From Longimicrobiales bacterium (lineage in GTDB: Bacteria; Gemmatimonadota; Gemmatimonadetes; Longimicrobiales; RSA9): a DNA stretch of 51,137 nucleotides. The notes beneath the pieces are model-generated. The model was not told the origin of the DNA and searched no databases. It worked only from the letters and a program-made list of their open reading frames with translations. The position numbers and the translations under genes are program-made. Shown one piece after another: positions 2,043 to 48,937 of this stretch. The stretch covers positions 1-51,137 of the forward strand of contig DATHVO010000078.1 in NCBI GenBank assembly GCA_035461265.1. The letters run 5' to 3'. How positions within the stretch are numbered: position 1 is the stretch's first letter; every line of letters starts with the position of its first letter.

Positions 2043-2414
2043 TCACGCCGCCACTTCCTCCTCGACCTCGTCCTCGCTGCGTGCCGACGGCGCGCCCAGC
2101 AGCACCAGTTCACGGACGTGCACCTCGGCCGTGGGAATCGTGACGCCGTTGCGCTCGAAGCTGTCGTACTCCATGCGGCCCTCCACGTATACGCGGTCGC
2201 CCTTGCGGACATAGTCCTCGGCGAGCTGGGCCAGGCGATCCCACAGTGTGAGGCGGTGCCACTCGGTGCGTTCCTCCGTGGCGCCTTCCCGGGCGAAACG
2301 GCGGCTGGTGGCCAGGGACACGTGCGCCACCTTCGCCCCCGCTGCCGTCGTCTGGACGTCGGGATCGCGCCCGATGTTGCCGACGAGGATGATCTTGTTG
2401 ATGGAACGACTCAT
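2043..2414 (-). CDS. ssb: Single-stranded DNA-binding protein (short form)
   Basis: INKIILVGNIGRDPDV...TEWHRLTLW...YVRKGDRVYVEGRMEY is a typical SSB OB fold. An AGGAGG lies upstream of the ATG. Confidence 0.9.
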   Translation of the reverse strand: MSRSINKIILVGNIGRDPDVQTTAAGAKVAHVSLATSRRFAREGATEERTEWHRLTLWDRLAQLAEDYVRKGDRVYVEGRMEYDSFERNGVTIPTAEVHVRELVLLGAPSARSEDEVEEEVAA

Positions 2415-2506: not shown

Positions 2507-3427
2507 TCAGCGGGCCAGCGTGCGGTCCGCCATGACGGCCGCGAGGAAGAGTGGCAGGAATGCCAGCGAAGCGACGAACAGCGCGCGCGCGCGCCGGATC
2601 GCGGGCTCGGCCAGGAAGTGACATGCGACGGCGGCGTAGGCTGTTCCGAGGCCTGCGGCCGCCGCGAGGTAGACGGTGCCGAGACCGCCGGCGACGACGG
2701 GAAGCATCGACAGCGGGATGATCGCCAGGGCACACGCGGCGCTCGCGAGGGCGGTCGTCCTGCCGGTCTCGTCACCCACCATGAGCATGCGGAAGCCCGC
2801 CGCGGCGTAGTCGTGCCGGTGCACCCAGCCGATGGCGAGGAAGTGGGGCATCTGCCAGAGGAGCAGTACACCGGTGAGGCAGAGCGCGGTCGCGTCGATG
2901 GCGGCGCCTGCGGCGGTCCAGCCCGCGAGGACGGGCAGGGCGCCGGGCACGGCACCCACGGCCGTACAGCTGCGGGACAGCCGCTTGAGCGGCGTGTACG
3001 CGGCCACGTAGGTGATGTGGCAGAGCACGAGGATCGCGGTGGTGACGGCGGGCAGCGCCGCGGTGGAGACGGCCAGGCCGAGTCCGGTCAGAGCCACGGC
3101 GAACGCGGTGGCCGTTCCCGCGGTCATCACGCCGCTCGCCACCGGCCGCCGGGCCGTCCGGAGCATGGCGGCGTCCGGGCCGCGTTCGAGGACGTGGTTG
3201 GCGGCGGCCGCCCCGCTCGACATCAGGAGTGTGGCTACCAGGACGGCGAGGAGCGTTGCCGGGTTCGCGGGAGCCGCGGCGACGGCGGCCGCTACGGCGG
3301 TGAGGGCCACGTAGGCGGTGATGCCGGGCTTCGTCAGGACTGCGTACGGTCTCACCCCGACGGCGGCAGTCGCCGCCACCCGGCCGGTACGCGCACCCTC
3401 CGGCACCACCGCCGCACGTGTGCTCAC
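2507..3427 (-). CDS. ctaB: Protoheme IX farnesyltransferase (heme O synthase), UbiA family
   Basis: Polytopic UbiA-type protein (YAVLTKPGITAYVALTA..., WQMPHFLAIGW). A GTG start at 3427 forms a GTGA overlap with the Sco stop. The longer ORF reaching 3679 overlaps Sco and is rejected. Confidence 0.8.
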   Translation of the reverse strand: MSTRAAVVPEGARTGRVAATAAVGVRPYAVLTKPGITAYVALTAVAAAVAAAPANPATLLAVLVATLLMSSGAAAANHVLERGPDAAMLRTARRPVASGVMTAGTATAFAVALTGLGLAVSTAALPAVTTAILVLCHITYVAAYTPLKRLSRSCTAVGAVPGALPVLAGWTAAGAAIDATALCLTGVLLLWQMPHFLAIGWVHRHDYAAAGFRMLMVGDETGRTTALASAACALAIIPLSMLPVVAGGLGTVYLAAAAGLGTAYAAVACHFLAEPAIRRARALFVASLAFLPLFLAAVMADRTLAR

Positions 3428-4362
3428 AGCCGCCTCACCAGCTCGACCAGGGCATCCGTACCGCCCGTCGTGGCATAAACGATCCGGCCCGCCGCGTCCA
3501 CGATGTAGCTGAGGGCGGGGTGAGCCACATCGCCCGTCCGCATGTCGCGCTCCCGGGCGACCTGCCAGGCATCGAGGACGGCCTCGACGTCCTCCGGCGG
3601 CCCGCCCAGCAGATACGACCCTTCGTCCATGCCCCAGCTCCGGGCGACGTGGGGCAGCCGCGCGGGCGTGTCCCGCCACGGATCGAGCGTGACGACCACC
3701 ACGGCAACGTCCCGCGGCGCGGCGTCGCCCCCGTCACCCGACGCGAGACGCTGGCGCGCATCGAGGGCATTGCGCACGAGGACCGGACAGACCGTCTCGC
3801 AGTGCGCGAACGCAAACGTGACGATGGCGGGCCGGCCCTCCAGCACCGTTGTGGAGAAGGCCGCGCCGGCGTGGTCGATGAGGTCCAGCGCGGGCGCCGG
3901 GCGATCGATGCGCGGGTAGGTCGCGGGCACGCCTTCCACTTCAGTCCAGCCCGCGGGGATGCGGGCGGCACTCACCCTCCAGCCCACCCCGGCGACGGCG
4001 ATCAGGACGACCGCGGCAACCGCACCACCCAGCATGCGACCCCGCGTCGTGGAGACCAGCGCCCGGGCCGCGCCGCCCAGGGCGCCCCGCCACCCCACCA
4101 GCAGCGCCCCGAGCATGCCCAGCGGCTGGCCCACCAGCGCCACCCAGCCCGCACGGTCCGGCAGACCGCCGCCGTCCACCCCGAAGCATACGAGACGCGT
4201 GCGCAGCAGCCAGTCCGGCGCGTCCCCGACAGGCCACAGCGCGAAGGCCCACCAGAAGACCGTCACCGCGAGGATGAACGCGCCCGCCCACAGCACGAAT
4301 GCCTCCTCCCGGCCGGTCCCCGGGTTCCGGCCGACACGCTCCAGCATCAGCCGATCCGCCAC
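3424..4362 (-). CDS. SCO1/SenC-family copper chaperone with an N-terminal multi-TM extension
   Basis: Thioredoxin-fold motif FAFAHCETVCP (CxxxC) plus a downstream His region. About 130 aa of hydrophobic N-terminal extension. An alternative start is at 4347. Confidence 0.8.
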   Translation of the reverse strand: MADRLMLERVGRNPGTGREEAFVLWAGAFILAVTVFWWAFALWPVGDAPDWLLRTRLVCFGVDGGGLPDRAGWVALVGQPLGMLGALLVGWRGALGGAARALVSTTRGRMLGGAVAAVVLIAVAGVGWRVSAARIPAGWTEVEGVPATYPRIDRPAPALDLIDHAGAAFSTTVLEGRPAIVTFAFAHCETVCPVLVRNALDARQRLASGDGGDAAPRDVAVVVVTLDPWRDTPARLPHVARSWGMDEGSYLLGGPPEDVEAVLDAWQVARERDMRTGDVAHPALSYIVDAAGRIVYATTGGTDALVELVRRL

Positions 4363-4457
4363 ACGAACGACAACAGCTTCCAGTTCGTGAAGTAGTACAG
4401 GGCGAACGCGGCCAGGAACACGAGGACCAGGATCATCGTCCCCGGCGTGCTGCCCAT
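4347..4457 (-). CDS. Small single-TM protein between oxidase subunit I and Sco
   Basis: MGSTPGTMILVLVFLAAFALYYFTNWKLLSFVWRIG has one TM helix and is packed tightly in the operon. The longer version starting at 4547 would overlap subunit I. Confidence 0.35.
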   Translation of the reverse strand: MGSTPGTMILVLVFLAAFALYYFTNWKLLSFVWRIG

Positions 4458-4488
4458 CCAGCCGTGTTCCTTGAGCCGGGCCTCGGCG

Positions 4489-6063
4489 TCAGGCGCCACC
4501 GGCGGTGGCGGATTCAGTAGCCCCGGCGGCAGTCCGTTCATGGGCATGAGCCAGATCTCCAGGTTGCAGTCTTTCGCCGAAGAACACGGACCAGACCGTG
4601 ATCAGTATGTACAGCGCCCCGCCCACCGCCGCGACGATGCCGCCCAGCGCCATCACCCCCATGACCATGTCCACGGATGGATGGAACTGCAGATCGAACG
4701 GAGCGTTCGTGAACGTGATGTCCCAGTGGCGACGAGGCACACCGAACGTGCCGGCGAACGTCATCATCACCGAGAAGACGAGCATCCCTCCCGCGAACAG
4801 GTAGGGCTGCACCTTCGCCAGTGGCCAGAAGGCGACTTTCCGCTGGAAGATGAGCGGGATCAGATAGTACGTGACTCCCATGAAGGCCATGGCAGTTCCG
4901 CTCACCACCGTGGCATGGAAGTGGCCCGGGATGCGGAGCGTGTTGTGCGCAATGATGTTGATCTGCTCCGTGCCGAACGTGACGCCGGTGATGCCGCCCA
5001 CGAAGCCGAAAACCACCACGGACAGCACGAGCGAGCTGAAGCCCGGGTCGCCCCACGGCGCACGCTTCAGCCAGCCGAACAGGCCCTGCGTGTAGCCGCG
5101 GGCACGCATGCCCAGCTCCACGCCTGCCGGCACCGTGAACCCGTGGAGCATGCTCGCCAGCACCGCCATGTACATGAAGTACGACGTGTTCACCACCTTC
5201 CAGGCCGGACCCATCCCCGGGTCCACCAGGAGGTGATGCGCCGCCGCCATGGAGATGAACAGCACGTACAGGACGAACGCGGTCCGGCTGATCTTCTCGT
5301 TCAGCACGACCGCCCCGACCGTCAGCGCCCCGAGGAGGTACCAGACGCCCACCATGGCGGCCACGTTGATCTGCTGCGATGCGTGCCCCAGCCCCCACCA
5401 CACCATCCGGTACACCTGCGGGTCCACGTGCATCAGGTCCAGTGACCAAAGGAACGTCGGGATGTAGATGGCCGCGCCGTGACCGAGCGTGATGACGGCA
5501 ATGATCGCCGCCGTCGCGGCGCCGAACGTGATGAGAGGGACCGAACCTTCGTACGAACGCTCGCGCTTCGCCACCACCAGCGTGGCGAAGAAATGCCCCA
5601 CCACCACCAGGGCCCCGACGGCGAACAGGATGACCCCGCCGTAGTACGCCGGATGCGCCCGCAGCGGGACGTACGAGGTGAACAGCACGTCCGCACGCCC
5701 GGTCCACATCGTCCACTGGACCGTGAGCATCCCCACGACCATGAGCACGAACGCCGCCCACCCGGTCTTCGGCGACGGAATCCGGCTGTTCAGGAGGGGG
5801 CCCGCGCAGAAGTACAGCACCGCCATCTCGAAGAACAGGATGTAGAAGATGAGCATGTTCATCCCGTGCACCGTGAGGATTCGATAGAACCAGACCGAAT
5901 CCAGCAGGTGCACCACCTGCCAGCGTGTCAGCAGCACCAGCACGGCGGCAACGCCGCCGACGAGGAGGGCCACCGTCGCCACCACAGCATGGGCCCGCAT
6001 CAGGAGCTCGCCCTGGCGGTCGATCCTCAGGCCCGTGGAGGGACATACGCGGAACGCGGTCAT
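4489..6063 (-). CDS. Heme-copper oxidoreductase subunit I, ba3/B-family-like, lacking the cross-link Tyr
   Basis: Colinear with Thermus CbaA as recalled from memory: TVHGMN, VDPQVYRMVWWGLGHASQQ, AAAHHLLVDPGMGPAWK, GLFGWLKRAPW, HNTLRIPGHFHATV. Its ATG overlaps the subunit II stop (ATGA). Confidence 0.9.
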   Translation of the reverse strand: MTAFRVCPSTGLRIDRQGELLMRAHAVVATVALLVGGVAAVLVLLTRWQVVHLLDSVWFYRILTVHGMNMLIFYILFFEMAVLYFCAGPLLNSRIPSPKTGWAAFVLMVVGMLTVQWTMWTGRADVLFTSYVPLRAHPAYYGGVILFAVGALVVVGHFFATLVVAKRERSYEGSVPLITFGAATAAIIAVITLGHGAAIYIPTFLWSLDLMHVDPQVYRMVWWGLGHASQQINVAAMVGVWYLLGALTVGAVVLNEKISRTAFVLYVLFISMAAAHHLLVDPGMGPAWKVVNTSYFMYMAVLASMLHGFTVPAGVELGMRARGYTQGLFGWLKRAPWGDPGFSSLVLSVVVFGFVGGITGVTFGTEQINIIAHNTLRIPGHFHATVVSGTAMAFMGVTYYLIPLIFQRKVAFWPLAKVQPYLFAGGMLVFSVMMTFAGTFGVPRRHWDITFTNAPFDLQFHPSVDMVMGVMALGGIVAAVGGALYILITVWSVFFGERLQPGDLAHAHERTAAGATESATAGGA

Positions 6064-6698
6064 GACTCACCTCCCGCCGCCGCCACGACAGCCGCGTCCG
6101 GCACCGCATCGGCGCCCTGCTCGAGTCCCTCGCCACCGGCGGCCGGCTCCGCCTCCGAGCCGTCCACGACGATGATCTTCCCCAGCATGATGTGGTGACC
6201 GATCCCGCAGAACTCGTTGCACACGATGCGGAAGTCGCCCGCCTCGGACGGCGTCACCCGGAGACCGTAGTCGTAGCCCGGCACCACCTGGAAGTTCACG
6301 TTGATGGGCACCAGACCGAATCCGTGGTTCACGTCAACCGACGAAAGGTGGAGCGTGTACTCGACCCCCTTCTGCAGCTTCAGGATGGGGGTCCACGACC
6401 ACATCCGGCCCAGCAGATAGATGTCACTGCCGGGCGGCGGCTCCACGATGGGAAAGCCTCGTTCGACGCCGACCTGGTACGCCTCTATGAATTCCTCCAC
6501 CCTGGCCTGGAACGCCGCAGGGTCGACCTTGCTGCGTATGCCCGATGGGTTCTGGCCACCCTTCAGATGCCACAGCGGCATCATCGCGAACAGCACCATG
6601 CACCACACGAACGCCAGCGTGAACCAGATCTTCTCCGATCGGTGCGCCGGCTTCCACCACACGCCCTTCGGCGACTCCATTCCGGTATTCATGCGCAC
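6060..6698 (-). CDS. Heme-copper oxidoreductase subunit II with a complete CuA site
   Basis: One TM helix plus a cupredoxin domain: SSVDVNHGF...FRIVCNEFCGIGHHIMLGKIIV (H, C, C, H, M ligands). Confidence 0.9.
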   Translation of the reverse strand: MRMNTGMESPKGVWWKPAHRSEKIWFTLAFVWCMVLFAMMPLWHLKGGQNPSGIRSKVDPAAFQARVEEFIEAYQVGVERGFPIVEPPPGSDIYLLGRMWSWTPILKLQKGVEYTLHLSSVDVNHGFGLVPINVNFQVVPGYDYGLRVTPSEAGDFRIVCNEFCGIGHHIMLGKIIVVDGSEAEPAAGGEGLEQGADAVPDAAVVAAAGGES

Positions 6699-6699
6699 C

Positions 6700-6861
6700 T
6701 CACGGCAGCGTCGCCGGCGGAAGGGTCAGAATCTCCCACAGGCCCCAGCCCGTGTAGAGCACCAGCATGATGAGCAGGCCCGCCGCCAGCAGCAGAAAGA
6801 CGTTGTCGTACAGCCTCTGGCCCAGCGGCACGCGCTCTTCCGGCTCGCCCGACTGCCTCAT
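6700..6861 (-). CDS. Small single-TM protein, possible ba3 subunit IIa analogue
   Basis: MRQSGEPEERVPLGQRLYDNVFLLLAAGLLIMLVLYTGWGLWEIL. Its ATG overlaps the Rrf2 stop (ATGA), and it ends 1 nt before the subunit II start. This position matches cbaD of Thermus. Confidence 0.45.
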   Translation of the reverse strand: MRQSGEPEERVPLGQRLYDNVFLLLAAGLLIMLVLYTGWGLWEILTLPPATLP

Positions 6862-7304
6862 GGCTCTCCTCCCCCCAGCACGACCATCACCCCCTGCCCG
6901 GCCGGCGCCCGCCGGCCTTCGATCAGGTCCGCGATCGTGGTGCTGCGAAAGAACTTGGTGATCGAATCCGCTACCGCCTTCCAGTGCCAGTGCGCCGTGC
7001 ACGGGTCGGCTTCATTGCACTCCCCCCGCCCGAGTATGCACCGCTGCCGCGACGGGATCGCATCGAACGGCGCCACCACGGCGTGGAGCGTGAGCGTATC
7101 GAGCGGGACCGCCACGCTGAATCCGCCCGTGCGGCCTCGCAGGGACTTCAGCACCCCATGCCGCACCAGCACGTGCAGCACCTTGTGCAGGTAGTTGCGC
7201 GGGGCCGCCACCGCGTCCGCCACCGACTCGGCCGTGGTCGGCCCTCCCTGCTGTGCGATGTGGAGCACGGCCCTCAACGCGTACTCCCCTGACTGTGACA
7301 CCAT
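6858..7304 (-). CDS. Rrf2-family transcriptional regulator with a three-Cys cluster (NsrR/IscR-like)
   Basis: The N-terminal wHTH (GEYALRAVLHIAQQGGPTTAESVADAVAAPRNYLHKVLHVLVRHGVL) and CILGRGECNEADPC are typical of Fe-S-binding Rrf2 proteins. Start chosen at the Met of MVSQSGEYALRAV. Confidence 0.8.
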   Translation of the reverse strand: MVSQSGEYALRAVLHIAQQGGPTTAESVADAVAAPRNYLHKVLHVLVRHGVLKSLRGRTGGFSVAVPLDTLTLHAVVAPFDAIPSRQRCILGRGECNEADPCTAHWHWKAVADSITKFFRSTTIADLIEGRRAPAGQGVMVVLGGGEP

Positions 7305-7360
7305 GTGCGCTCTACTTGTTTTTGTCATGATGAAATGATAAATAGGAGAACGCAAGGGTT
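7305..7360. promoter_or_regulatory. AT-rich divergent control region between the Rrf2-oxidase operon and the cytochrome b fusion operon
   Basis: The stretch ctacttgtttttgtcatgatgaaatgataaataggagaa is strikingly AT-rich in a GC-rich genome. It contains the TCATGA palindrome and ATCAT direct repeats. Confidence 0.4.
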
Positions 7361-8977
7361 TTGTTGTGTGCAAACGGGATGGCGACGGGGGCGAGAGGCA
7401 TGGACGGGGCCGGGTCGGCGGGTACCGCCGGACAGTCATGGGGCACGGCTCCCGCGCCGGGCAACGCGTCCTGGAAGCTGCTGGCCGTTTTGGACGGCTG
7501 GGTCAATCGGCTTTACGGCTCACGCTGGAATCCACTCTACCAGAGCGGGGCCATGACGGTGGCGCTCCTGCTGGTGGTGCTGGTGACCGGGCTGTATCTG
7601 CTGCTGTTCTACCGGTTGGGCTCACCGTGGGAGTCGGTGGCGCGGGTGACGGACCAGGCGTGGTCGGGCCGCTGGATCCGTGGCCTTCACCGGTACGCGT
7701 CGGACGGCCTGATCGTCACGTCTGCGGTGCATGCGTTCCGGATGTACGCACAGCGCCGGACGTGGGGCCCGCGCGCACTGGCGTGGGTGAGTGGCGTGAC
7801 GCTGGTGGGGGTGGTCCTGGTATGCGGCTGGACGGGCTACGTCATGGTGTGGGACGTACAGGCCCAGGTGCTGGCGGTGGAAGGGGCCCGCTTCCTGGAC
7901 GTACTCCCCATCTTCTCGGAGCCCATCGGCCGCGCGTTCGTCGGCGAGTACCCGCTGCCGAGCGCGTTCTTCTTCCTGAACCTGTTCGCGCACGTGGCGC
8001 TCCCGGTGGGACTGGCCCTTCTTGTCTGGGTCCACGTGTCCCGGGTTGCGCGTCCGGTCCTCCTTCCGCCTCGCCGGCTGCTGTGGGCCGTGGTGGCGGG
8101 GTTCACCGCGCTGTCTGTCGTCTGGCCGGTGGGCATGGCCCCGAAGGCGGATGTCCTGGCCGTGCCGGGGTCGGTGCCGCTGGACGTCTTCTACGGGTTC
8201 TGGCTTCCGGTGACGCGGTTGTTTCCTGGGTGGGCGGTGTGGGCGGCGGGTGTGTCGCTTCTGGCCGTGCTTCTGCTCGTTCCGGTGTGGACGCGGGTGC
8301 GGTCGGGGGTGCGCACGCACCGTTCGCGGGTGGACGAGCGACTGTGCACGGGGTGCGAGCAGTGCGCCCTGGACTGTCCCTACGACGCCATAGCAATGAT
8401 TGCCCGGGGCGATGGCCGACCGGGCAGCGTGGCGCGGGTGAACGCGGCCGTCTGCGTGAGTTGCGGGATCTGTGCGGCGTCCTGCGCACCCATGGGCGTC
8501 GGGCCCGGAGGCCGGACGGGGCGGGATCAGCTGGCGGCCGTCCGCGGATTCGGCGGAACGGGTGATGGCGTAGTTGTGGTGGCCTGCGCCCGCAGCGCCG
8601 GCGGCAGCGTCTCCGTGCCGGGGATCCGGACGTTGGCGGTGGAGTGCGCGGGCAACGTCCACACGTCGGTCATCGAGACCCTCCTCCGGGGCGGTGCGGC
8701 GGGGGTCCTCGTGGTGGCCTGTCCGGGACGGGACTGCTGGAACCGCGAAGGCGGCAGGTGGTTGAACGCGCGGGTCCACGACGGGCGCGAGGCGGAGCTG
8801 CAGGCGCGGGTGGACCGGTCTCGCGTCCGGCTGTGCTACCTGTCCGCCCGTGAGACGAGCCGGTTGACGGCGGCGGTATTCGACTTCGCCGCCACGCTCC
8901 CGGCGCCAATCGACGGGACCGACCGGCTCGATCTGGTCGCCGAATGCCAGCGCGCCGCTGCCGGTGAGGCGTCATGA
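7361..8977 (+). CDS. Fusion protein: di-heme cytochrome b membrane domain, 2x[4Fe-4S] ferredoxin, and MvhD/FlpD-like domain
   Basis: Two H-x13-H pairs in TM helices (HRYASDGLIVTSAVH, HVALPVGLALLVWVH). Ferredoxin motifs CTGCEQCALDCP and CVSCGICAASCAP. MvhD-like segment VVVACARSAG...VECAGNVHTSVIETLLRGGAAGVLVVACPGRDCWNREGG. The start is uncertain (TTG 7361 or ATG 7379). Confidence 0.8.
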   Translation: MLCANGMATGARGMDGAGSAGTAGQSWGTAPAPGNASWKLLAVLDGWVNRLYGSRWNPLYQSGAMTVALLLVVLVTGLYLLLFYRLGSPWESVARVTDQAWSGRWIRGLHRYASDGLIVTSAVHAFRMYAQRRTWGPRALAWVSGVTLVGVVLVCGWTGYVMVWDVQAQVLAVEGARFLDVLPIFSEPIGRAFVGEYPLPSAFFFLNLFAHVALPVGLALLVWVHVSRVARPVLLPPRRLLWAVVAGFTALSVVWPVGMAPKADVLAVPGSVPLDVFYGFWLPVTRLFPGWAVWAAGVSLLAVLLLVPVWTRVRSGVRTHRSRVDERLCTGCEQCALDCPYDAIAMIARGDGRPGSVARVNAAVCVSCGICAASCAPMGVGPGGRTGRDQLAAVRGFGGTGDGVVVVACARSAGGSVSVPGIRTLAVECAGNVHTSVIETLLRGGAAGVLVVACPGRDCWNREGGRWLNARVHDGREAELQARVDRSRVRLCYLSARETSRLTAAVFDFAATLPAPIDGTDRLDLVAECQRAAAGEAS

Positions 8978-9495
8978 GGGCGGGGCGCCGGCTGCTCGGA
9001 CTCGTGGTCGCGTGCGCGGCGCTCGGCGCCGTGGGAGCCGGCACGCGAGTCCCCTGGACGCCCTCGTCCGGCGAGGATGCGGTACTGCGCCTGTCGTGGC
9101 GCCTGCGAGGCGTGCGGGTGGAGGAGTGTCGCCGCCTGACGCCCGCCGAGCTGGAGCGCCAGCCCGCCCACATGCGCCGGGAGGAAGTATGCGAGGGGCG
9201 CATCGAACCGTACCGGCTCACGGTGGAGATCGATGGCCAGCGCGTCGAAGACGTCCTCGTCGCGGCGTCCGGCGCCCGGGCCGATCGCCCCCTCTACGTC
9301 TACCGCGAGTTCCGGCTCCGACCCGGCGAACATTCCGCCGCCGTCCGCTTCGCCGTTGAATCCGGCAGCGTCGGTGACGACGACCGGGTGGCCCTCACAT
9401 GGTCCGGACGCGCAGTGTTCCGGCCGGGGCGGGTGCTCCTCGTGACGTACGACGCCGACGCCCGGGCACTGGTGGCCCGGGACGCGCTGGAGTGA
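8974..9495 (+). CDS. Exported hypothetical protein
   Basis: Its ATG overlaps the upstream stop (ATGA). Signal-like MRAGRRLLGLVVACAALGAVGAG. Coding-like composition, but no motif I recognise. Confidence 0.55.
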   Translation: MRAGRRLLGLVVACAALGAVGAGTRVPWTPSSGEDAVLRLSWRLRGVRVEECRRLTPAELERQPAHMRREEVCEGRIEPYRLTVEIDGQRVEDVLVAASGARADRPLYVYREFRLRPGEHSAAVRFAVESGSVGDDDRVALTWSGRAVFRPGRVLLVTYDADARALVARDALE

Positions 9496-9654
9496 TGCGG
9501 GCATGATGGGCGTCTGCCGGACCCGGTGTAGGGGTTTTCCCGAATGCGGAACGTCGGCGGCAGGCTATGTTTTCTGGCGCCCTGTCCCTCGCCCGGACTG
9601 CGAGGGGGGAGGCAGTCGGCTCGTTCCGGAACCAGGACTACGGAGCAGTGCAGC

Positions 9655-9888
9655 ATGGCGGAACTGATGGTCGACATCCGGCCGGTCCTGCCGCGAGACC
9701 GGTTCGATGTCATCGCGGACAGCTACCGCACTCTCGAGCCCGGAGGCACCCTGGCCTTCACGTTCGAACACGAGCCAAACGGTCTCACTTTCGCCCTCGA
9801 GGCCGTGGCCGGCATCGGTGCCTTCCGCGTCAGCCATGCGGAGGTGGACGAGATGGTATGGCGCGCCGAGGTGGAGCGCGTCGTCTGA
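9655..9888 (+). CDS. DUF2249-like small protein
   Basis: MAELMVDIRPVLPRDRFDVIADSYRTLEPGGTLAFTFEHEPNGL...WRAEVERV follows the DUF2249 pattern as I recall it (DxRxLxPxxR...LxPG...H-P..L...WRV). A GGAG lies about 10 nt upstream. Confidence 0.55.
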   Translation: MAELMVDIRPVLPRDRFDVIADSYRTLEPGGTLAFTFEHEPNGLTFALEAVAGIGAFRVSHAEVDEMVWRAEVERVV

Positions 9889-9907: not shown

Positions 9908-9950
9908 CAGGCGGGTCCGCCATCGTGGCGGCCCGCCTGTCTTTCTATTT
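9908..9950 (+). terminator. Intrinsic terminator closing the plus-strand operon
   Basis: caggcgggtccgcc-atcgt-ggcggcccgcctg gives a 13-bp stem with one bulge, followed by tctttctattt. The T-tract overlaps the polA stop on the other strand. Confidence 0.6.
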
Positions 9951-12740
9951 GCACTCGAACCAGTTCCTGCCCACGCCCGTCACGACGTCCAGGGGAACGC
10001 TGAGCTCCACGGCGTTCACCATGAGCTCCTGTACCCTGGCGCGGACGGGATCGACGTCCTGCTCCGGCACCTCGAGGACCAGTTCGTCGTGCACCTGCAG
10101 CAGCATGCGCGTGCGGGAACCGGACGACTCGAGTTCCCGGTGGATGGCGATCATGGCGAGCTTGATGATGTCCGCCGCGCTCCCCTGCACCGGCGCATTC
10201 GTGGCAGCCCGCTCGCCGAACTGCCGGATATTGTAGTTCCGGCTCGCGATCTCCGGGATGTAGCGTCGGCGGCCGGAGATCGTCTCCACGTAGCCGCGGT
10301 CCCGGGCCTTCACGATCTGCTCGTCCAGGTAGCGCCGGACATCGGGGAAGCGGACGAAGTAGTTGTCGATGAACTCCTTCGCTTCCTGGACGGAAGTGCC
10401 GAGCTGGTGCGACAGTGCGAAGGGCCCGATGCCGTAGATGGTGGCGAAGTTCACCGTCTTCGCCGCGGCACGCATGGCCGCGGACACGTCCCCGACCGGT
10501 ACGCCGAAGATGATGGCGGCCGTCTGCCTGTGGATGTCGGCACCGCTGCGGAACGCCTCGACGAACGCCGGGTCGCCGGAGAAGTGGGCGAGGATACGCA
10601 GCTCGATCTGCGAGTAGTCGGCCGTGACGAAGAGGAAGCCGTCCGCGGGAACGAAGCCCTTGCGGATCTCGGCGCCCTGGTCCGTGCGGATGGGGATGTT
10701 CTGCAGGTTCGGGTCGCTGGACGAGAGCCGGCCCGTGGCCGCTACGGTCTGGTTGAAGCTGGTGTGGATCCGGCCCGTCGCCGGGTTGACCAGGAGGGGC
10801 AGCGCGTCGACGTACGTGCCCTTCAGCTTGTCCAGCTGGCGGAACTCCATGAGCTGGCGCGGCAGGGCGTGGCCCTGCGCCGCCAGTTCCTCCAGTACCG
10901 CCGCGTCGGTCGATGGACCCGTCTTGGTCTTGCGCAGCACGGGCAGGCCGAGCTTCTCGTAGAGGATGGAGCGGAGCTGCGGCGTGGAGCTGATGTTGAA
11001 CTCCTCCCCGGCCAGCTTCCAGATTTCCTGCTGGATGAGCGTGAGGTCGCGCTCGAGGCGCCGGCTCGACTCTGCGAAGAACGCCCCATCGATCCGGATG
11101 CCGTGCCACTCCATGGCCGCGAGGACTTCGATGAGGGGGATCTCGATGCCGCCGTAAAGCGGGTCGAGGTCGAGGCGCGTCATCTCTTCGGCCAGCACCG
11201 GTTGCAGCCGCAGGGGAAGCTCGGCCCTCCCGCCGGTCCATGCGGCGACGCGGTCCACTTCGCACTCCTCCAGGGCAACCGCGTCCCGGCCCCGGCCGAC
11301 GAGCTCGTCGCGCGTCGGTATCCGCGCCCCGAAGTGCTCCACCGCCAGGGCCTCCAGGCCGTGCTCCCGCTTTCCCGGATCGAGCACGTAGGACGCGATC
11401 ATCGCGTCGAAGCGCAGGCCCCGCAGCGTCACGCCCGCCCGCTTGAGACGGAGGAGGTCCTGCTTCAGGTCGTGGCCGACCTTCCCGACCGCCTCATCCT
11501 CCAGCAGCTCGCGCAGCCCGGCCATCGCCGGCTCGGTGAGCCCGGGCAGGTTGTGCCGCACGCGCCCGTCTGGCCCCGTGGCCCCCAGCCCGTCCAGCTC
11601 GAGCATCCCCGCCGTGCGGTGCCCCAGCGGCAGATACCAGGCGCGCCCCGGCTCCGCCGCCAGCGCCAGACCCACGATCCCGCCCCGCAGCGGGTCCGCA
11701 GTCGTGCCCTCGACCCGGAGGGCGACGGCGCCGGCAGACCGCACCGCATCTACGATGCGCGACACGACCTCCACCGTCTCGACAACCTCGCACGCCGTCT
11801 CCGCCCCGGGCGTCGGTTCCGACCCCTCACTCGCGTCCGGCCCTGCGGACGCATACTCGCGGACGAGCGTGTGGAACTCCAGATCGAGGAAGACCCGGCG
11901 CAGCCGGTCCCGATCGGGCGCCTGCACGCGCAGGGCGTCCAGGTCGAGAGCCACCGGCAGATCGTCCATGATCGTCACCAGCCGCTTCGACAGCCGGATG
12001 TCGTCCGCCGATGCCAGCAGCGCTTCCCTGGCCCGCTTGTTCGAGACGTCCCCGGCGTTGGCGAGGATGCTCTCCACGGAACCGAACTGCTCGATGAGCT
12101 GGATCGCCGTCTTCGGGCCGATCCCCTTCGCACCGGGGATGTTGTCCGAGCTGTCGCCGATGAGGGCCAGGTAGTCCACCACGTGCCGCGGCGGCACGCC
12201 CAGCCGCTCGCCGGCACGGCCCAGGTCCACCCACTCCTCCTCAACCCCGGCACTCCCGCCGCGCCCCGGATTCAGCAGGCAGATGTGATCCCCGATGAGC
12301 TGGTAGAAGTCCTTGTCGCCGGACACGATCACCGCCTCCAGCCCCGCCGCCGCCGCACGCCGCGCCAGCGTGCCGATGACGTCGTCTGCCTCGTGGTCCG
12401 GCAGCGTCACCACCGGGACCCGGAATCCCTCCACCACCTCCCGGATCTTCGGCAGCGACCACGCCAGGTCATCCGGCATCTTGTCCCGCGTCGCCTTGTA
12501 GTCGGGATACAACTCCGCCCGCTGGCTCGTACCCGCGTCCAGGACCACACCCAGGTAGTCCGGCTCGTGCTGCTGCAGGATCTTTATGAGGAAGCGCGTG
12601 AAGCCGAACGCCGCAGAAGTGTTCTCGCCGCGGGTCGTCAGCAGCGGACGCTGGATCATCGCGAAGTAGGCGCGGTAGATCAGCGCATAGCCATCAATGA
12701 GGAAGAGCCGCGGTCGGGTCTTCGGCGGCGTCTGCACCAT
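9945..12740 (-). CDS. polA: DNA polymerase I
   Basis: 5'-nuclease N-terminus (LFLIDGYALIYRAYFA), a central exo-like domain, and polymerase motifs (ADYSQIELRILAH, QVHDELVLE). Start at MVQTPPKTRPRLFLIDG. Confidence 0.95.
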   Translation of the reverse strand: MVQTPPKTRPRLFLIDGYALIYRAYFAMIQRPLLTTRGENTSAAFGFTRFLIKILQQHEPDYLGVVLDAGTSQRAELYPDYKATRDKMPDDLAWSLPKIREVVEGFRVPVVTLPDHEADDVIGTLARRAAAAGLEAVIVSGDKDFYQLIGDHICLLNPGRGGSAGVEEEWVDLGRAGERLGVPPRHVVDYLALIGDSSDNIPGAKGIGPKTAIQLIEQFGSVESILANAGDVSNKRAREALLASADDIRLSKRLVTIMDDLPVALDLDALRVQAPDRDRLRRVFLDLEFHTLVREYASAGPDASEGSEPTPGAETACEVVETVEVVSRIVDAVRSAGAVALRVEGTTADPLRGGIVGLALAAEPGRAWYLPLGHRTAGMLELDGLGATGPDGRVRHNLPGLTEPAMAGLRELLEDEAVGKVGHDLKQDLLRLKRAGVTLRGLRFDAMIASYVLDPGKREHGLEALAVEHFGARIPTRDELVGRGRDAVALEECEVDRVAAWTGGRAELPLRLQPVLAEEMTRLDLDPLYGGIEIPLIEVLAAMEWHGIRIDGAFFAESSRRLERDLTLIQQEIWKLAGEEFNISSTPQLRSILYEKLGLPVLRKTKTGPSTDAAVLEELAAQGHALPRQLMEFRQLDKLKGTYVDALPLLVNPATGRIHTSFNQTVAATGRLSSSDPNLQNIPIRTDQGAEIRKGFVPADGFLFVTADYSQIELRILAHFSGDPAFVEAFRSGADIHRQTAAIIFGVPVGDVSAAMRAAAKTVNFATIYGIGPFALSHQLGTSVQEAKEFIDNYFVRFPDVRRYLDEQIVKARDRGYVETISGRRRYIPEIASRNYNIRQFGERAATNAPVQGSAADIIKLAMIAIHRELESSGSRTRMLLQVHDELVLEVPEQDVDPVRARVQELMVNAVELSVPLDVVTGVGRNWFECK

Positions 12741-12846
12741 GCAAGTCCTTCCCTCGAACAGTTGATCAGGAAGGATACTGCGGTTCCGGGACGGACGCAC
12801 TCCCCGCAACCCGGGGCCCCGGTCTGGAAAACGGCACGAACGACAA

Positions 12847-12895: not shown

Positions 12896-13105
12896 TCAGG
12901 TGGGGGTCGGACGATTAACGTTCGCCGCCTGCAGCCCCTTGTCGGTCTGCTTCACCTCGAACTCGACCTCCTCACCCTCCGCCAGCGTCTTGAACCCCTC
13001 CATCGTGATGGCAGAGAAGTGGACGAAGACGTCCTCGCCGTCCGGCTGTTCAATGAAGCCGTACCCCTTGGCATCATTGAACCACTTCACCTTCCCCCTG
13101 GCCAT
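12896..13105 (-). CDS. cspA: Cold-shock protein, CspA family
   Basis: [15 protein letters not shown] and DVFVHFSAI are the RNP1 and RNP2 motifs. Confidence 0.95.
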
Positions 13106-39751: not shown

Positions 39752-41962
39752 TCAGCGGCTCGATCCGAGCAGCTCGCTCACCAGTGCATGGGCCTGATAG
39801 ACGCTCCGCAGCGCCTCGAGAATGCCGGCCGAGTGGACGCCGACGGTGCGTCCGTTCTCCGTGCGGAATACGAACTCGTTCGGCAGCTGCTCAATGTTGC
39901 CGTCGAAGGCGATTCCCACAATCCGGCCCTCCCGGTCGATCATGGGGCTTCCGCTGTTGCCGCCGGTGATGTCGTTCGTCGAGACGAAGTTGATGGGTAC
40001 GGTCATGTCGATGGAGTCGCGGCGCTCGGCGAAGGCCTTGGGCAGCGTCCAGGGGTCGCGGTCATCGAACTCGGCGGCCCGGGCGTAGAGTCCGTAGTAG
40101 GTGGTCTTGTAGGGCGCCACCGTGCCGTTGTACGGGTAGCCGGCCACGATCCCGTCCGCGATGCGGAGCGTGAATGTGGCGTCCGGTGGGAAGCGGGTGC
40201 CGTGCACGGCGAAAAGTGCCCGGGCGAGGCGCTCACGCTGCACCGTCTCCTCGGCGGTGAGGGCCCGCAGCTGCGGCAACGCATCGCCGTAGATTGAGTC
40301 CATGGCCCGGGCCAGACGGAAGAGCGGGTCTGACACCGTGTCGGCGGCGGCCGGTCCTGCGGCGATGATGCCCTGGCGCCAGGCGGCACCCGCCACCGGG
40401 CTCGCGCGGATCAGCCTGAGGGCCGCCTCCTCCGGGGTCTCGCCCGCAGTCCGGGCACGGACTGCCGGGTGGTCGGCGGGGAGCCACTGGGCGGCGAGGC
40501 GCAGGTGGAATGCGAGGGCGGCCACCGCCTGCGCCTCCGGCACGGCGGACTCCCGCGCCAGCGCCTGGCGCGCCTGCTCGAAGCGCTCACCCCGGTACGC
40601 TGCGGGCCGGTCGGCCTCGGCGAGGGTGGCGGCGTGCACGAAGCCCGCGAGCTGGCTGGCCACGACGAGGTGCTGGGCACCGGCCATGCCCGGGCTGCTC
40701 ACGTTCACCAGGGGATCGAGGGCCAGCTTCCGCACCTGAATGGCCACGAGCCGGTCCCACACGTCGGCGTACCGGCGAGCCTCGGGATCGGCCTCGACAC
40801 GCTGCCGGAGATCCCGCTCCCACGCAATCTTCTGCGCGACGAGCATGGAATCCGTGAGACCCGCCAGCTGGCCGCTGTACGCCTTCAGTGAGTTCTCGAC
40901 GCCGAAGATCTGCTGGCGAACCTGCCGTTCCTGTTCCGGGCCCTGTGCCGCGATGGCCTTGAGCATGGCGAGGCGGCCGGCCAGCAGGTCCACGATGAAC
41001 GGGTGTCGGTACGAGCGCTCGTACATCATCTGGGCCAGCGTGATGAGGCGGCTGGTGGAGCCGGGATTCCCGGTGACGAAGACGAGTTCATCCTCGGCGG
41101 CGCCCTCGGCCCGCCACGGGAAGTAGTGGGGTGAGCTCACCGGCGTGACACCGTCGTCCGCGTAGGCGCGCACGAACGTCACGTCCAGCGCATAGCGCGG
41201 GTAGGTGAAGTTGTCCGGATCGCCGCCGAAGAACCCGGCGGCCACCTCCGGCGCGAAGACGAGCTTCACGGGCGCATACCGGCGATAGGTGTAGAGCTGA
41301 TGCTGGCCGCCCTGGTACAGCGGCACGACCTGACAGGTATTGCCGGTCCTCGCCTCGCACTCCTGCTGGATGCGGCGGGACTCCGCGGCCAGGGCCGCCG
41401 TAACCTCCTCGCTGGTCCCGCCGGCGGGCGCCGCGGCACGCACACGTTCCGTCACGTCGGCGATGTCCACGAGCTGGTCGAGGAAGAGGTTGGGGCACAC
41501 CCTCTCCTCGTCGCGGGTCCGCGCATGGAACCCCAGCTCGATATGATCGACGTCGGCGGTGGAGACATCCTCGATGCACTGCTGGGCGCAGTGATGGTTC
41601 GTCATGACGAGGCCGTCCGGTGACACGAAGGACGCGGAGCACCCCCGTCCGTAGCGGACCGACGCGAGTCGTGCATGCTCGAGCCACTCGGGGGTGGCGT
41701 TGAAGCCGTAGCGCTCCCGCCAGTACTCGAGAGGCGGGTTCTCGAACGTCCACATGGTCCCGAGTTCGAGGCCGGTCGGCTGCATGCCGGCCGCGGCGCG
41801 GCGGGCGGCATCGGATGGATCCAGGCGGGAATCCATCTGCCCCGCCGTCCGCGTGACCGCGCCCGGCTGCGGATCCGACGCGGCAGGCGCAGTCGCGCAG
41901 GCTGCCAGGACGAGCCCGGCCAGCAGGGGGACGGTGCTGATGATCGTGTGACGTCGCCACAT
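39752..41962 (-). CDS. S46-family dipeptidyl-peptidase
   Basis: VMTNHHCAQQC (catalytic His) and GGNSGSPMIDREGRIVGIAFDGN (catalytic Ser), with a large helical insert. The start is uncertain (41962 or 41986). Confidence 0.85.
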   Translation of the reverse strand: MWRRHTIISTVPLLAGLVLAACATAPAASDPQPGAVTRTAGQMDSRLDPSDAARRAAAGMQPTGLELGTMWTFENPPLEYWRERYGFNATPEWLEHARLASVRYGRGCSASFVSPDGLVMTNHHCAQQCIEDVSTADVDHIELGFHARTRDEERVCPNLFLDQLVDIADVTERVRAAAPAGGTSEEVTAALAAESRRIQQECEARTGNTCQVVPLYQGGQHQLYTYRRYAPVKLVFAPEVAAGFFGGDPDNFTYPRYALDVTFVRAYADDGVTPVSSPHYFPWRAEGAAEDELVFVTGNPGSTSRLITLAQMMYERSYRHPFIVDLLAGRLAMLKAIAAQGPEQERQVRQQIFGVENSLKAYSGQLAGLTDSMLVAQKIAWERDLRQRVEADPEARRYADVWDRLVAIQVRKLALDPLVNVSSPGMAGAQHLVVASQLAGFVHAATLAEADRPAAYRGERFEQARQALARESAVPEAQAVAALAFHLRLAAQWLPADHPAVRARTAGETPEEAALRLIRASPVAGAAWRQGIIAAGPAAADTVSDPLFRLARAMDSIYGDALPQLRALTAEETVQRERLARALFAVHGTRFPPDATFTLRIADGIVAGYPYNGTVAPYKTTYYGLYARAAEFDDRDPWTLPKAFAERRDSIDMTVPINFVSTNDITGGNSGSPMIDREGRIVGIAFDGNIEQLPNEFVFRTENGRTVGVHSAGILEALRSVYQAHALVSELLGSSR

Positions 41963-42045
41963 GATGGGTGCTCCGTGTGTCGGCATGTTCGCGCGGCCGG
42001 CGCCATGCCGGGCCGCGCTCGTTTGGATATGGCCGGGCGGCGGTC

Positions 42046-43146
42046 TCATGGACGCGCGTGCGCCGGCCGTGTCGCGTCGATGTAGCGCCTGACCGGAGCC
42101 GGAAGATCGGCCGTCACCGCTCCCGCCAGGAGGTCCCGGGGCTCCACCGCGCTGAGTGTGTGCCAGAAGAGGGGAAGCCCGTCCGCCGGACCGGCCAGAA
42201 GGCCGGCCGCCGCCTTGGCCGTGTACGTGGCGTCCAGCGTGAGGCCCGCCACGGCGAACAGTTCAGTCGCGCGGTCGCCGGCCGCCGTCGCCCGGCCATA
42301 CCCGTCACCGATCTGGTCGTGCTGCAGCTCGATGAGCCGGAGGGCCGAGTCGGCCGGCGGCAGCGATGCACCCGCCGCCCTCAGGAGTGCCACGGTGTCC
42401 CGCGCGAGCCGGCCGAGTACCCTGGGGTTCGTCACGACACGGGATGTGATCCGTGTCGCCGTGATGGGAATGTCCAGGCCCGCCCACGCCAGGCCGACCG
42501 CCATGCCGGCGACGGTGCCCAGAGTGCCGGCAGCCACATGGATGCGGTCGGGCCGCGGCGCCTCGCCGGACGCGATCTGTTCCGCCAGCTCCAGGCCGGC
42601 ACTCACGTATCCCAGCGCGCCAACCGGACTCGACCCGCCGGGCGGCACCGAGTAGGGCGCATCTCCGCGATGGGCCCGCCGCGCCCGCCACATGCCCCAC
42701 GGCACGGCCTCCATGCGGCGGACCCAGCGCAGTTCCGCGCCGGTGGCGGCGTCCATCAGGATGATGTCACGGACATGGGGCGTGAGTCGCTGAGGGAAGA
42801 GTACCAGCGACGCGTCCAGGCCCAGGCGCGTGCCGTGCCATGCCGTCGCCAGGGCATGATGGGATCCCGCCGCGCCCGCCGTGATGACCCGGCGGGCACC
42901 CCCGCGAAGGGCGTCCGCGAGAAGAAACTCGAGCTTGCGGACCTTGTTGCCGGCGTAGCCGTCGGCGCAACGGTCGTCCCGTTTCACCAGGATCGTGCGG
43001 CCATTGATCTCGAACGGCTGGACCGGCGTGGGGAAGCTGCCCAGACGTAGTCGTCGCAGACGCTGCAGGAGGCGGGGTTCGGCCCGGAAGAGGGCCAGGT
43101 CGTCGGCGGCGTCCGGGCCGGGCGCGGTGTCGGGGCGTTCATCCAT
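42046..43146 (-). CDS. PLP-dependent D-cysteine desulfhydrase / ACC deaminase family protein
   Basis: KRDDRCADGYAGNKVRKLEFLLADAL contains the PLP-Lys motif of this family. Confidence 0.8.
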   Translation of the reverse strand: MDERPDTAPGPDAADDLALFRAEPRLLQRLRRLRLGSFPTPVQPFEINGRTILVKRDDRCADGYAGNKVRKLEFLLADALRGGARRVITAGAAGSHHALATAWHGTRLGLDASLVLFPQRLTPHVRDIILMDAATGAELRWVRRMEAVPWGMWRARRAHRGDAPYSVPPGGSSPVGALGYVSAGLELAEQIASGEAPRPDRIHVAAGTLGTVAGMAVGLAWAGLDIPITATRITSRVVTNPRVLGRLARDTVALLRAAGASLPPADSALRLIELQHDQIGDGYGRATAAGDRATELFAVAGLTLDATYTAKAAAGLLAGPADGLPLFWHTLSAVEPRDLLAGAVTADLPAPVRRYIDATRPAHARP

Positions 43147-43242
43147 GGCCCCGGGAAATTGGTGCCGGCGCCGACGAGGCACCAGAGGCGGCGACGCGCG
43201 GGACGGGACCCGGGGATCACCCCGTACCCGTGCGGCCCGTGG

Positions 43243-43701
43243 TCAGGCCGTCTGCCGCGCAGGCATCGACACCGCCACCCGCGTCTGCAGGCCCTTCTCC
43301 GGCGGAAGCCTGTCCAGCGTCTGGTTCTCATGCGCCCGCAGCACGGTGACACACCAGACCTCTGCCGCCCGCTGCACCACCTCCGACCGGGTGTCGCCCT
43401 CGAACGCCAGGCTCACCGGACGGGGCAGCGGCACGACGTGCTGCGAGCCCGACAGCGGATTGCGCTCCACGACCCGATCCAGTGTGGCGTACATGACAAA
43501 GCGTGTCCCGGTCTCAGTCACGTCACCCCGGTGCAGCACGCGCCACGGACCCTCCACCCACACACCCGTCGGCATCTCCAGCGTCGTCACGAGGTCGTGG
43601 CCCTTCAGTTCGGCGCGGCATGCAGCGCCATCACTCGTCGGCTCCACGCCCGTCCCCGGGAGGAGTACCGCCAGGATCAGCGCATTGATGAACATGTGCA
43701 T
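43243..43701 (-). CDS. Exported hypothetical protein
   Basis: Signal-like MHMFINALILAVLLPG and coding-like composition, but no recognised motif. Confidence 0.45.
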   Translation of the reverse strand: MHMFINALILAVLLPGTGVEPTSDGAACRAELKGHDLVTTLEMPTGVWVEGPWRVLHRGDVTETGTRFVMYATLDRVVERNPLSGSQHVVPLPRPVSLAFEGDTRSEVVQRAAEVWCVTVLRAHENQTLDRLPPEKGLQTRVAVSMPARQTA

Positions 43702-44010: not shown

Positions 44011-44021
44011 CGGTGACCCAG

Positions 44022-46290: not shown

Positions 46291-46305
46291 TCGTTGTTCT
46301 CCTGG

Positions 46306-48933: not shown

Positions 48934-48937
48934 AACC

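Follow-up and report, generated by a model that had tools for sequence, protein, structure and literature searches.

Membrane cytochromes b wired to iron-sulfur (Fe-S) clusters of the cytoplasm are known from the Nar, Hdr, Dsr and Qmo systems. Heme-copper enzymes of the eNOR type, for their part, are thought to drive a large share of environmental nitric oxide (NO) reduction and nitrous oxide (N2O) formation (PMC11214002). Here we describe a gene whose parts are known one by one and which is encoded beside a predicted enzyme of the eNOR type. It lies on a 51,137-nucleotide stretch of DNA from a Longimicrobiales bacterium of the Gemmatimonadota (assembly GCA_035461265.1, contig DATHVO010000078.1, positions 1 to 51,137), called the window in what follows. 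The window has a G+C content of about 69%, and the closest named relatives of its genes are found in metagenome-assembled genomes of Longimicrobiales and Gemmatimonadales. In a single polypeptide, the gene, named the fusion below, joins a cytochrome b of the bc1/b6 type, a ferredoxin domain with two [4Fe-4S] cluster motifs and a domain resembling MvhD. It is divergent from the oxidase operon and is directly followed by a gene for a 173-residue protein, which makes up a fourth module.

With the cytochrome b of the bc1 and b6f complexes, the fusion shares the four-helix di-heme core and two H-x13-H pairs, and one of its periplasmic loops may be comparable to the PEWY loop. In contrast with these complexes, genes for a Rieske protein or cytochrome c1 are absent from the window region and from the 12 loci for which precomputed Pfam annotation existed, the C-terminal half of the cytochrome (subunit IV of b6f) is reduced to two helices, Fe-S domains of the same chain are predicted on the cytoplasmic (N) side, where bc1 has its Qi quinone site, and the gene belongs to an oxidase operon or is its neighbour. 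In Sulfolobus, SoxC of the SoxABCD complex is likewise a cytochrome b homologue that is encoded with a heme-copper oxidase and works without a Rieske protein. However, SoxC carries none of the Fe-S, MvhD-like and periplasmic modules, and its oxidase reduces O2. The NCBIfam model cyt_b_SoxC matches residues 62-226 of the fusion at 3.4e-13 with 49 bits, against a cut-off of 740, so that the fusion is not a member of that family. The other nearest b-type cytochrome models of NCBIfam, cytochrome b6 and ExtP (NF040969; 83.9 bits against a cut-off of 290), also remain far under their cut-offs.

Resemblances are also seen to systems that link quinones to redox chemistry in the cytoplasm. In NarI/NarH, HdrE/HdrD, DsrM/DsrK and QmoC, a di-heme b protein is wired to cytoplasmic Fe-S clusters, and both Qmo (in QmoB) and Hdr contain MvhD-like domains. 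However, these systems use a cytochrome b of the NarI/HdrE type, which belongs to a different fold family, and have a catalytic subunit at their end, whereas the fusion combines a cytochrome b of the bc1 type with an extra periplasmic module and with a link to a heme-copper enzyme. The comparison with Qmo, Hdr and Hme complexes that an initial annotation, made from the sequence alone, had brought forward is therefore reduced to an analogy. As to MvhD and HdrA2, residues 320-512 of the fusion correspond to the ferredoxin-plus-MvhD portion of HdrA2, and the C-terminal domain matches the MvhD fold, but the second Cys of the CxxC motif, the HdrA flavoprotein and a hydrogenase partner are lacking, and the domain is tethered to a membrane cytochrome. 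CcoG/FixG and NosR are membrane proteins with a cytoplasmic 2x[4Fe-4S] domain found beside a copper-containing respiratory reductase, and CcoG ends in an Ig-like domain; no homology between them and the fusion was detected, and neither CcoG nor NosR contains a cytochrome b.

The nearest description in print is that of the eNOR operon of Ferrigenium straubiae, in which genes for cytochrome b and Fe-S proteins occur with sco1 and heme o synthase genes and for which the authors propose a supercomplex of the cytochrome b/[Fe-S] proteins with eNOR (bioRxiv 10.64898/2026.01.22.701106). Compared by description only, the Ferrigenium proteins differ in that one of the two has FAD- and NADH-binding domains, and no MvhD-like or periplasmic module is described; the authors consider the genes unusual and specific to Ferrigenium (bioRxiv 10.64898/2026.01.22.701106). 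Apart from this partial account of one genus and from a table entry (PMC8756737), the searched literature describes neither a Rieske-less, bc1-type cytochrome b fused to an HdrA2-like ferredoxin/MvhD cassette and a periplasmic module nor a near-obligate pairing of such a protein with eNOR. The earlier impression that the fusion corresponds to no characterised system thus stands, since no match was found.

The three-module structure of the fusion is supported by Pfam, NCBIfam, a profile search of the PDB and Foldseek, which all agree with the initial annotation on this point. PF00033 (Cytochrome_B) matches residues 56-226 with 47.1 bits, above its cut-off of 27.2, and PF13631 also exceeds its own (32.5 vs. 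27). When a profile built from 23 homologues was compared with the PDB, cytochrome b6 was retrieved at 6.5e-21, together with the ferredoxin domain of HdrA and MvhD. An AlphaFold2 (AF2) model of the fusion (predicted local distance difference test, pLDDT, 68) was aligned by Foldseek with bc1 cytochrome b over about 290-360 columns. The gene probably starts at the ATG at 7400 and encodes 525 residues, because the first 35 residues or so of the longer open reading frame (ORF) are not conserved and an identical protein in the databases has 525 residues. Conservation of the cofactor ligands was followed in 135 representatives that are 29-62% identical. The two H-x13-H pairs, which had been recognized from the start, lie on helices B and D, and their four His are kept in 134-135 of these representatives. 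Arg and Trp positions around the hemes are conserved as well, like in bc1/b6f.

The core is followed by two helices, and PF00032, the Pfam model of the C-terminal cytochrome b domain, gave no match in the fusion. Between these helices, a loop carries the motif P-[LIV]-D-[WLI]-[FW]-[YF] (PLDVFY in the window protein), the Asp of which, D275, is kept in 125 of the 135 representatives. We take this P-x-D-[WLI]-[FW]-[YF] loop to be akin to the PEWY loop of the Qo site in bc1, of which it is a possible counterpart. Residues 181-320, aligned singly to PDB cytochrome b chains for placing PEWY, gave no match, and the comparison is therefore based on column conservation.

On the C-terminal side of the membrane part, ferredoxin dicluster models of Pfam match residues 323-376. 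Two CxxCxxCxxxCP motifs are present (C329/332/335/339 and C365/368/371/375), their eight Cys are near-invariant, and the domain resembles the C-terminal ferredoxin domain of HdrA. PF02662 (FlpD) then matches residues 420-513 with 48.6 bits for a cut-off of 22.3. In Foldseek, this last domain superimposes on 5odc_D and 8rvu_F with target-normalised TM-scores of 0.67-0.71 and root-mean-square deviations of 3.2-3.5 Å. As a unit, residues 320-512 match the ferredoxin-plus-MvhD C-terminal part of HdrA2 at 7e-19 in NCBIfam. The initial annotation held that part of the usual Cys set of MvhD is replaced. The N-terminal CxxC of MvhD is indeed reduced to one Cys; yet four conserved Cys remain, of which C409, C429 and C454 are near-invariant and C459 is found in 113 of the 135 representatives. 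Three of the four align with MvhD Cys in sequence alignments to the MvhD chains 8rvv_F and 5odc_D, and the four presumably bind a [2Fe-2S] cluster. No CCG or catalytic domain, no NarI-type cytochrome b and no output domain were detected in the fusion by Pfam.

Because the charged loops of the cytochrome obey the positive-inside rule, the Fe-S domains are predicted to be cytoplasmic. Three Fe-S clusters would then continue, on the cytoplasmic side, a transmembrane chain of two b hemes, while a conserved loop and a further domain would face the outside.

This further domain is provided by the 173-residue protein. The start of its gene overlaps the stop codon of the fusion by ATGA at 8974-8977, as read in the sequence. 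No Pfam or NCBIfam match was obtained, even at E<=10, and Pfam is also empty for 27 homologues; the homologues, found in Gemmatimonadota, are all named “hypothetical”. The AF2 model (pLDDT 89.6) consists of an N-terminal helix followed by a beta-sandwich. Thus, of the exported, motif-less and translationally coupled protein proposed at first, the coupling and the absence of a family are upheld, and the protein is membrane-anchored rather than simply exported. Compared with the PDB by Foldseek, the model gave no match at E<=1e-3 and only weak, generic beta-sandwich matches. The beta-sandwich contains a loop, C52..E59..H66-M67-R68..C73, the His-Met of which is kept in 92 of about 108 sequences. 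C52 and C73 covary, both being present in 78 sequences, both absent in 32 and only one present in 6. Since they are gained and lost together, they most likely form a disulfide that staples the loop. They had also been considered as metal ligands, an assignment that was dropped on account of the same pattern.

In most lineages, the two window genes are one polypeptide. A search of 1.84 billion representative proteins with the fusion gave 397 clusters (50% identity) at E<=1e-30, and the architecture was counted in the best 150 of them, most of which are 650-750 residues long. A hidden Markov model of the 173-residue family matches the C-terminal 170 residues or so in 100 of these 150 representatives, and 99 of the 100 have at least 600 residues. 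In the fused form, a C-terminal transmembrane helix and the beta-sandwich are appended to the fusion. As the Fe-S domains are predicted to be cytoplasmic and a single helix is added, the beta-sandwich would be periplasmic. Hence, the coupling of the 173-residue product to the fusion is stronger than was first thought, and we regard both genes as encoding one membrane redox machine, made of two polypeptides here and of a single protein of 650-750 residues elsewhere. In one subfamily (P0374, P0375 and P0378), an extra cytochrome c domain with a CxxCH motif is found at the C-terminus. A single ORF of this cytochrome c-tailed kind is listed, uncommented, in Table A3 of a previous study (PMC8756737).

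The genomic context of the fusion ties it to the oxidase. Relatives of the fusion are held by 438 species genomes, and gene presence was scored by tblastn in the best 80 loci, of which 79 are labelled Gemmatimonadota and the remaining one is a bin labelled Acidimicrobiia. The gene of the 173-residue protein is directly 3' of the fusion in 78 of the 80. In these loci, selected on the fusion, oxidase subunit II (COX2) is found in 76 and subunit I (COX1) in 74, and the loci that lack oxidase genes are contigs cut near the fusion. A more distant sample consists of 10 long-form homologues on contigs, the named ones from Rhodothermales, Calditrichaeota, Myxococcota and Verrucomicrobia. In all nine loci with upstream DNA, the fusion is on the same strand as the oxidase genes and immediately after them. 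It directly follows SCO1 in seven of the nine; SCO1 is just downstream in L090 and is not seen in L088. In L087, L089 and several metagenome loci, the fusion is followed by a UbiA gene, and Rrf2, nirS, NnrS or hemerythrin genes are near it in several distant loci.

The reciprocal sample was made of metagenome loci picked by eNOR subunit I only, with 55% identity to the query as the lower bound. Of the loci with at least 3.5 kb of downstream sequence, 28 of 29 contain the fusion; where 1.5 kb or more was available, the count is 43 of 46. The few eNOR loci without it are compatible with a divergent layout cut by the contig end. The linkage between fusion and oxidase is therefore near-obligate, the sampled eNORs representing a single subclade. 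The tie to the divergent Tyr-less oxidase that had been suggested is borne out by synteny under both selections and by a motif common to both promoters (see below), and the survey of neighbourhoods proposed with it finds subunit II in 76 and an Rrf2 gene in 66 of the 80 loci. The linked subunit I genes all carry GHxxQQ(I/V)N, with the exception of the partner of a cytochrome c-tailed variant: at L088:273-4903, a variant with a diverged beta-sandwich and a C-terminal cytochrome c domain with a CxxCH motif comes directly after a B-family (ba3-like) oxidase that is canonical and has the Tyr, without an intervening SCO1. Hence, the fusion family is not restricted to eNOR. As a separate observation, the locus labelled “uncultured Acidimicrobiia” (L042) has the divergent, split layout of Gemmatimonadota, which suggests a mis-binned contig or a transfer.

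The assignment of the neighbouring oxidase to the eNOR type is predicted from its active site. Aligned to the ba3 oxidase of Thermus thermophilus, subunit I shows GHASQQ where the latter has GHPIVY, with a Gln opposite the cross-linked Y237, and the HH pair is present. A Gln at the site of the cross-linked Tyr is characteristic of eNOR and an Asn of sNOR (PMC8756737, Table A4); the Bacillus enzyme has the same Asn (PMC3475470). An assignment to sNOR, considered together with a reading of the fusion as orf1 of the norSY-senC-orf1 cluster known from ammonia oxidisers, was thus ruled out, the residue being Gln (eNOR) and not Asn (sNOR/bNOR). The eNOR of Rhodothermus marinus is a demonstrated NO reductase (PMC11214002). 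The CuA motif of subunit II is also conserved in loci of other phyla.

In the window, the operon begins with Rrf2, followed by a small ORF, subunit II, subunit I, a second small ORF, SCO1 and heme O synthase. The Rrf2 protein scores 97.8 with TIGR00738 (cut-off 73.3), 31.5 with the NsrR model (cut-off 182) and 64 with that of IscR (cut-off 207). Its stop codon overlaps the start of the 53-residue small ORF by ATGA at 6858-6861 (minus strand), and Rrf2 therefore appears to be translationally coupled to the operon, as its first gene. This small ORF corresponds to genes of 47-59 residues in other phyla, has 53 residues in a close relative as well, and is possibly a component similar to subunit IIa/CbaC. 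Both small ORFs flanking the oxidase genes may encode minor subunits of the oxidase, like subunit IIa/CbaC in B-type oxidases. The UbiA/CtaB ORF was mechanically listed as 2507-3679 (minus strand), with 390 residues and an overlap of about 250 nt with SCO1. Its real length is probably about 306 residues, with a start near 3430, at about the end of the SCO1 gene, because the orthologue in an 83%-identical relative (L092) has 306 residues.

Other eNOR loci show variations of their own. A second, divergent COX1-like protein of about 470-509 residues, approximately 25% identical to eNOR subunit I and with GGGHVLQx instead of GHxxQQxN, opens most eNOR operons outside Gemmatimonadota and also occurs in about 45 of the loci from metagenomes (L094-L173). 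Neither the window nor the loci of Gemmatimonadota and Rhodothermales contain it. This protein may be the “eNOR scaffold protein of unknown function” of the Ferrigenium preprint (bioRxiv 10.64898/2026.01.22.701106). At L090:6708-7265, an eNOR subunit II has an altered CuA region, CNEYCFYAGPQMGHDTM rather than CNEFCGxGHHxM; NnrS, hemerythrin and nirS genes occur at the same locus.

The divergent region between the Rrf2/eNOR operon and the fusion measures 75 nt. It contains an imperfect palindrome of 19 nt (consensus TCATGATnATATGATAAAT) and, 8-11 nt further on, a conserved GCAAG box, located at 7352-7356 in the window. The motif is near the start of the fusion in 55 of 84 loci. Only two other matches were found in 1.4 Mb, both just upstream of eNOR operons whose transcription units are separated from those of the fusion. 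This recurrence points to a shared control element, and, judged from sequence, the motif and the GCAAG box look like a candidate operator and/or promoter common to the eNOR and fusion genes in Gemmatimonadota. We infer that Rrf2 binds the motif. In this lineage, expression of the fusion is probably tied to that of the eNOR operon through the divergent region and Rrf2. The motif and the box were not found in other phyla, where the genes form one operon. A scan for sigma-70 promoters gave no match.

What the fusion does can be discussed in this frame. We propose, giving it about an even chance, that the fusion and the 173-residue protein are a dedicated electron-transfer partner of the adjacent eNOR, linked both to quinol and to the cytoplasm. 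Quinol would be oxidised at a periplasm-facing pocket beside the outer heme, and electrons would reach the CuA center of eNOR subunit II via the periplasmic module, to which a cytochrome c domain is added in one subfamily. The chain of b hemes and Fe-S clusters would link the quinol site to some cytoplasmic redox partner. SoxC, the cytochrome b homologue of the Rieske-less SoxABCD quinol oxidase, is a precedent for such a partner. The near-obligate linkage, the shared 19-nt motif and the conservation of D275 speak for the partner role, and the cytochrome c-tailed variant counts toward a role as electron donor. In addition, the eNOR operon of Ferrigenium has cytochrome b and Fe-S genes whose proteins were detected under denitrifying conditions (bioRxiv 10.64898/2026.01.22.701106).

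Several points weigh against this partner role. The same preprint terms such genes “rather unusual” in eNOR operons (bioRxiv 10.64898/2026.01.22.701106), and the sampled eNORs cover one subclade only. Purified R. marinus eNOR works with artificial donors (PMC11214002), and the fusion is thus not needed for catalysis itself. Genes for a Rieske protein or a cytochrome c1/f are missing from the window region and from the 12 Pfam-annotated loci, and none of the nearby genes codes for a cytoplasmic partner of the MvhD-like domain. As no redox-cofactor motif is recognisable in the beta-sandwich, the route from heme to CuA is left unexplained in most members. Finally, the fusion gene comes after SCO1 in most phyla and, at some loci, before heme O synthase. 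These neighbours are assembly genes, and a role in maturation would therefore fit this position equally well.

The main rival explanation is indeed that the fusion is a maturation factor for eNOR and B-family oxidases, which we judge unlikely overall. Electrons would cross the membrane to the beta-sandwich, where copper would be kept as Cu(I), or the cysteines of Sco and CuA would be kept reduced, during assembly of CuA/CuB. CcoG/FixG for cbb3 oxidases, or PCuAC working with Sco, would be the analogues. The position immediately after SCO1 in most phyla and, at several loci, before the UbiA heme O synthase speaks for such a function, as do the conserved His-Met in the disulfide-stapled periplasmic loop and a layout (transmembrane domain, 2x[4Fe-4S], C-terminal Ig-like domain) that recalls that of CcoG. 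The activity of the purified two-subunit eNOR without the fusion points the same way (PMC11214002). However, Pfam and Foldseek reveal no sequence or fold likeness of the 173-residue domain to FixG_C, CcoG/FixG, PCuAC or CopC. A full bc-type di-heme cytochrome b with a Qo-like loop would be elaborate for a chaperone, the cytochrome c-tailed variant resembles an electron donor, and the L088 gene follows its oxidase genes with no SCO1 between them.

A bolder reading, which we consider improbable, would make the fusion and eNOR a quinol-oxidising complex, bc-like but Rieske-less, in which the two electrons of quinol part ways. One would go outward to CuA and to the very high-potential NO/N2O couple; the other would go inward via heme bL, heme bH, the 2x[4Fe-4S] domain and the [2Fe-2S] cluster to a low-potential carrier of the cytoplasm, either ferredoxin or, via a partner, NAD(P)+. 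If this were true, NO reduction would be coupled to the conservation of energy or to a supply of reducing power, and the preprint speculates on such a link for the Ferrigenium paralogue with FAD- and NADH-binding domains (bioRxiv 10.64898/2026.01.22.701106).

Less probable still is an oxygen-independent route to heme A(s), in which the fusion would take up the electrons from the oxidation of the C8 methyl of heme O and replace CtaA in those eNOR operons that do not have it. A CtaA gene is found in none of the 12 Pfam-annotated loci, UbiA/CtaB is often adjacent, and the preprint raises the unsolved question of O2-dependent heme A synthesis under anoxic denitrification (bioRxiv 10.64898/2026.01.22.701106). 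The basis is context, however, and CtaA could be encoded elsewhere in the genomes; moreover, the fusion has no similarity to CtaA in Pfam, and the periplasmic domain would be left without a role. We hold it very improbable that the fusion is a device for NO or redox sensing or protection, whose Fe-S clusters or hemes would signal NO or the redox state of the quinones instead of carrying catalytic flux. An Rrf2 regulator is encoded next to it and hemerythrin and NnrS genes are near some homologues, but Pfam shows no output domain, the protein is built like a wire for electrons with all its ligands conserved, and Rrf2 is already a sensor. Finally, a hydrogenase or heterodisulfide-reductase subunit unrelated to the oxidase, as the NCBI/JGI names “hydrogenase iron-sulfur subunit” and “F420-reducing hydrogenase delta subunit”, the FlpD domain and the similarity to the HdrA2 C-terminus would have it, is effectively refuted, since these names come from one domain, no hydrogenase, Hdr or HdrA gene is found in the window region or the 12 Pfam-annotated loci, and the oxidase linkage is near-universal.

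The fusion is probably a missing working part of the N2O-producing eNOR system. In the sampled subclade it is encoded with nearly every eNOR, and it touches on the questions of electron supply, energy conservation and assembly under low oxygen. As an electron-input module, it would represent a new, Rieske-less use of a bc-type cytochrome b and would connect NO reduction directly, through the membrane, with the Fe-S redox chemistry of the cytoplasm. As an assembly factor, it would bear on the construction of copper and heme A(s) centers in denitrifiers. In both cases, the name “hydrogenase iron-sulfur subunit” given in databases is misleading, and the gene would be a useful marker for annotating eNOR operons.

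Table 1. Features of the fusion and eNOR loci in the window, and second COX1-like genes of other loci (last rows). Fractions refer to the best 80 genome loci.
Feature	Position	Strand	Evidence
ssb (housekeeping flank)	2043-2414	-	
UbiA-family heme O synthase (CtaB)	2507..3430	-	Pfam UbiA 131 bits
SCO1/SenC copper chaperone	3424..4362	-	Pfam 78 bits; 59/80 loci
Small 66-residue membrane ORF between subunit I and SCO1	4347..4547	-	62/80 loci
Heme-copper oxidase subunit I, predicted eNOR type, GHASQQIN	4489..6063	-	Pfam COX1 192 bits
Heme-copper oxidase subunit II, CuA motif CNEFCGIGHHIM	6060..6698	-	NCBIfam CoxB 50 bits and Pfam COX2, both below cut-off
Small ORF with a single transmembrane helix, about 53 residues, 5' of subunit II	6700..6861	-	77/80 loci
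Rrf2-family regulator, three-Cys motif, first operon gene	6858..7304	-	Pfam 86 bits; 66/80 loci
19-nt imperfect palindrome TCATGATGAAATGATAAAT	7325..7343	+	One match in window, 0 expected
Cytochrome b / 2x[4Fe-4S] / MvhD-like fusion gene	7361..8977	+	ORF from TTG 7361, Pfam domains
bc1/b6-type cytochrome b core, helices A-D	7526..8053	+	PF00033; heme ligands H110/H124, H211/H225
Two further transmembrane helices and periplasmic loop	8072..8293	+	AF2 helices 238-254, 276-311
Cytoplasmic 2x[4Fe-4S] ferredoxin domain (predicted side)	8327..8488	+	CTGCEQCALDCP and CVSCGICAASCAP; Pfam Fer4, Fer4_7
MvhD/FlpD-like domain	8570..8899	+	PF02662; Cys C409, C429, C454, C459
173-residue partner: N-terminal transmembrane helix (signal anchor) and periplasmic beta-sandwich	8974..9495	+	
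DUF2249 gene	9655..9888	+	PF10006 33.1 bits, cut-off 29.5
Intrinsic terminator: hairpin 9908-9939 and U-run	9908..9950	+	-30 kcal/mol, z = -3.2
polA (housekeeping flank)	9945-12809	-	
Cold-shock protein (housekeeping flank)	12896-13105	-	
Second COX1-like gene	L083:3992-5398		
Second COX1-like gene	L084:4112-5554		
Second COX1-like gene	L085:3869-5398		
Second COX1-like gene	L086:3890-5365		
Second COX1-like gene	L087:4225-5631		
Second COX1-like gene	L089:3155-4588		

Downstream of the 173-residue protein, the initial annotation had placed a gene similar to DUF2249 and a terminator in the same operon. Both are real, but DUF2249 is no conserved part of the unit. It was found in one of the 80 genome loci, about 5 kb off, and otherwise only in very close relatives, and it was therefore rejected as a member of the module and is considered a lineage-specific gene. 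The boundaries given in Table 1 are probably those of the real gene, and an 82-residue DUF2249 gene is located at the same place in the 83%-identical relative. The terminator sits between the convergent DUF2249 and polA genes. No nir, nos or other denitrification gene was found among the window ORFs scanned between 0.2 and 39.7 kb. The polA, cold-shock protein and ssb genes that flank the region are shared with the close relative L092. Finally, the last 11 kb or so of the window (39752-51094) contain about ten ORFs with a coding-like codon composition.

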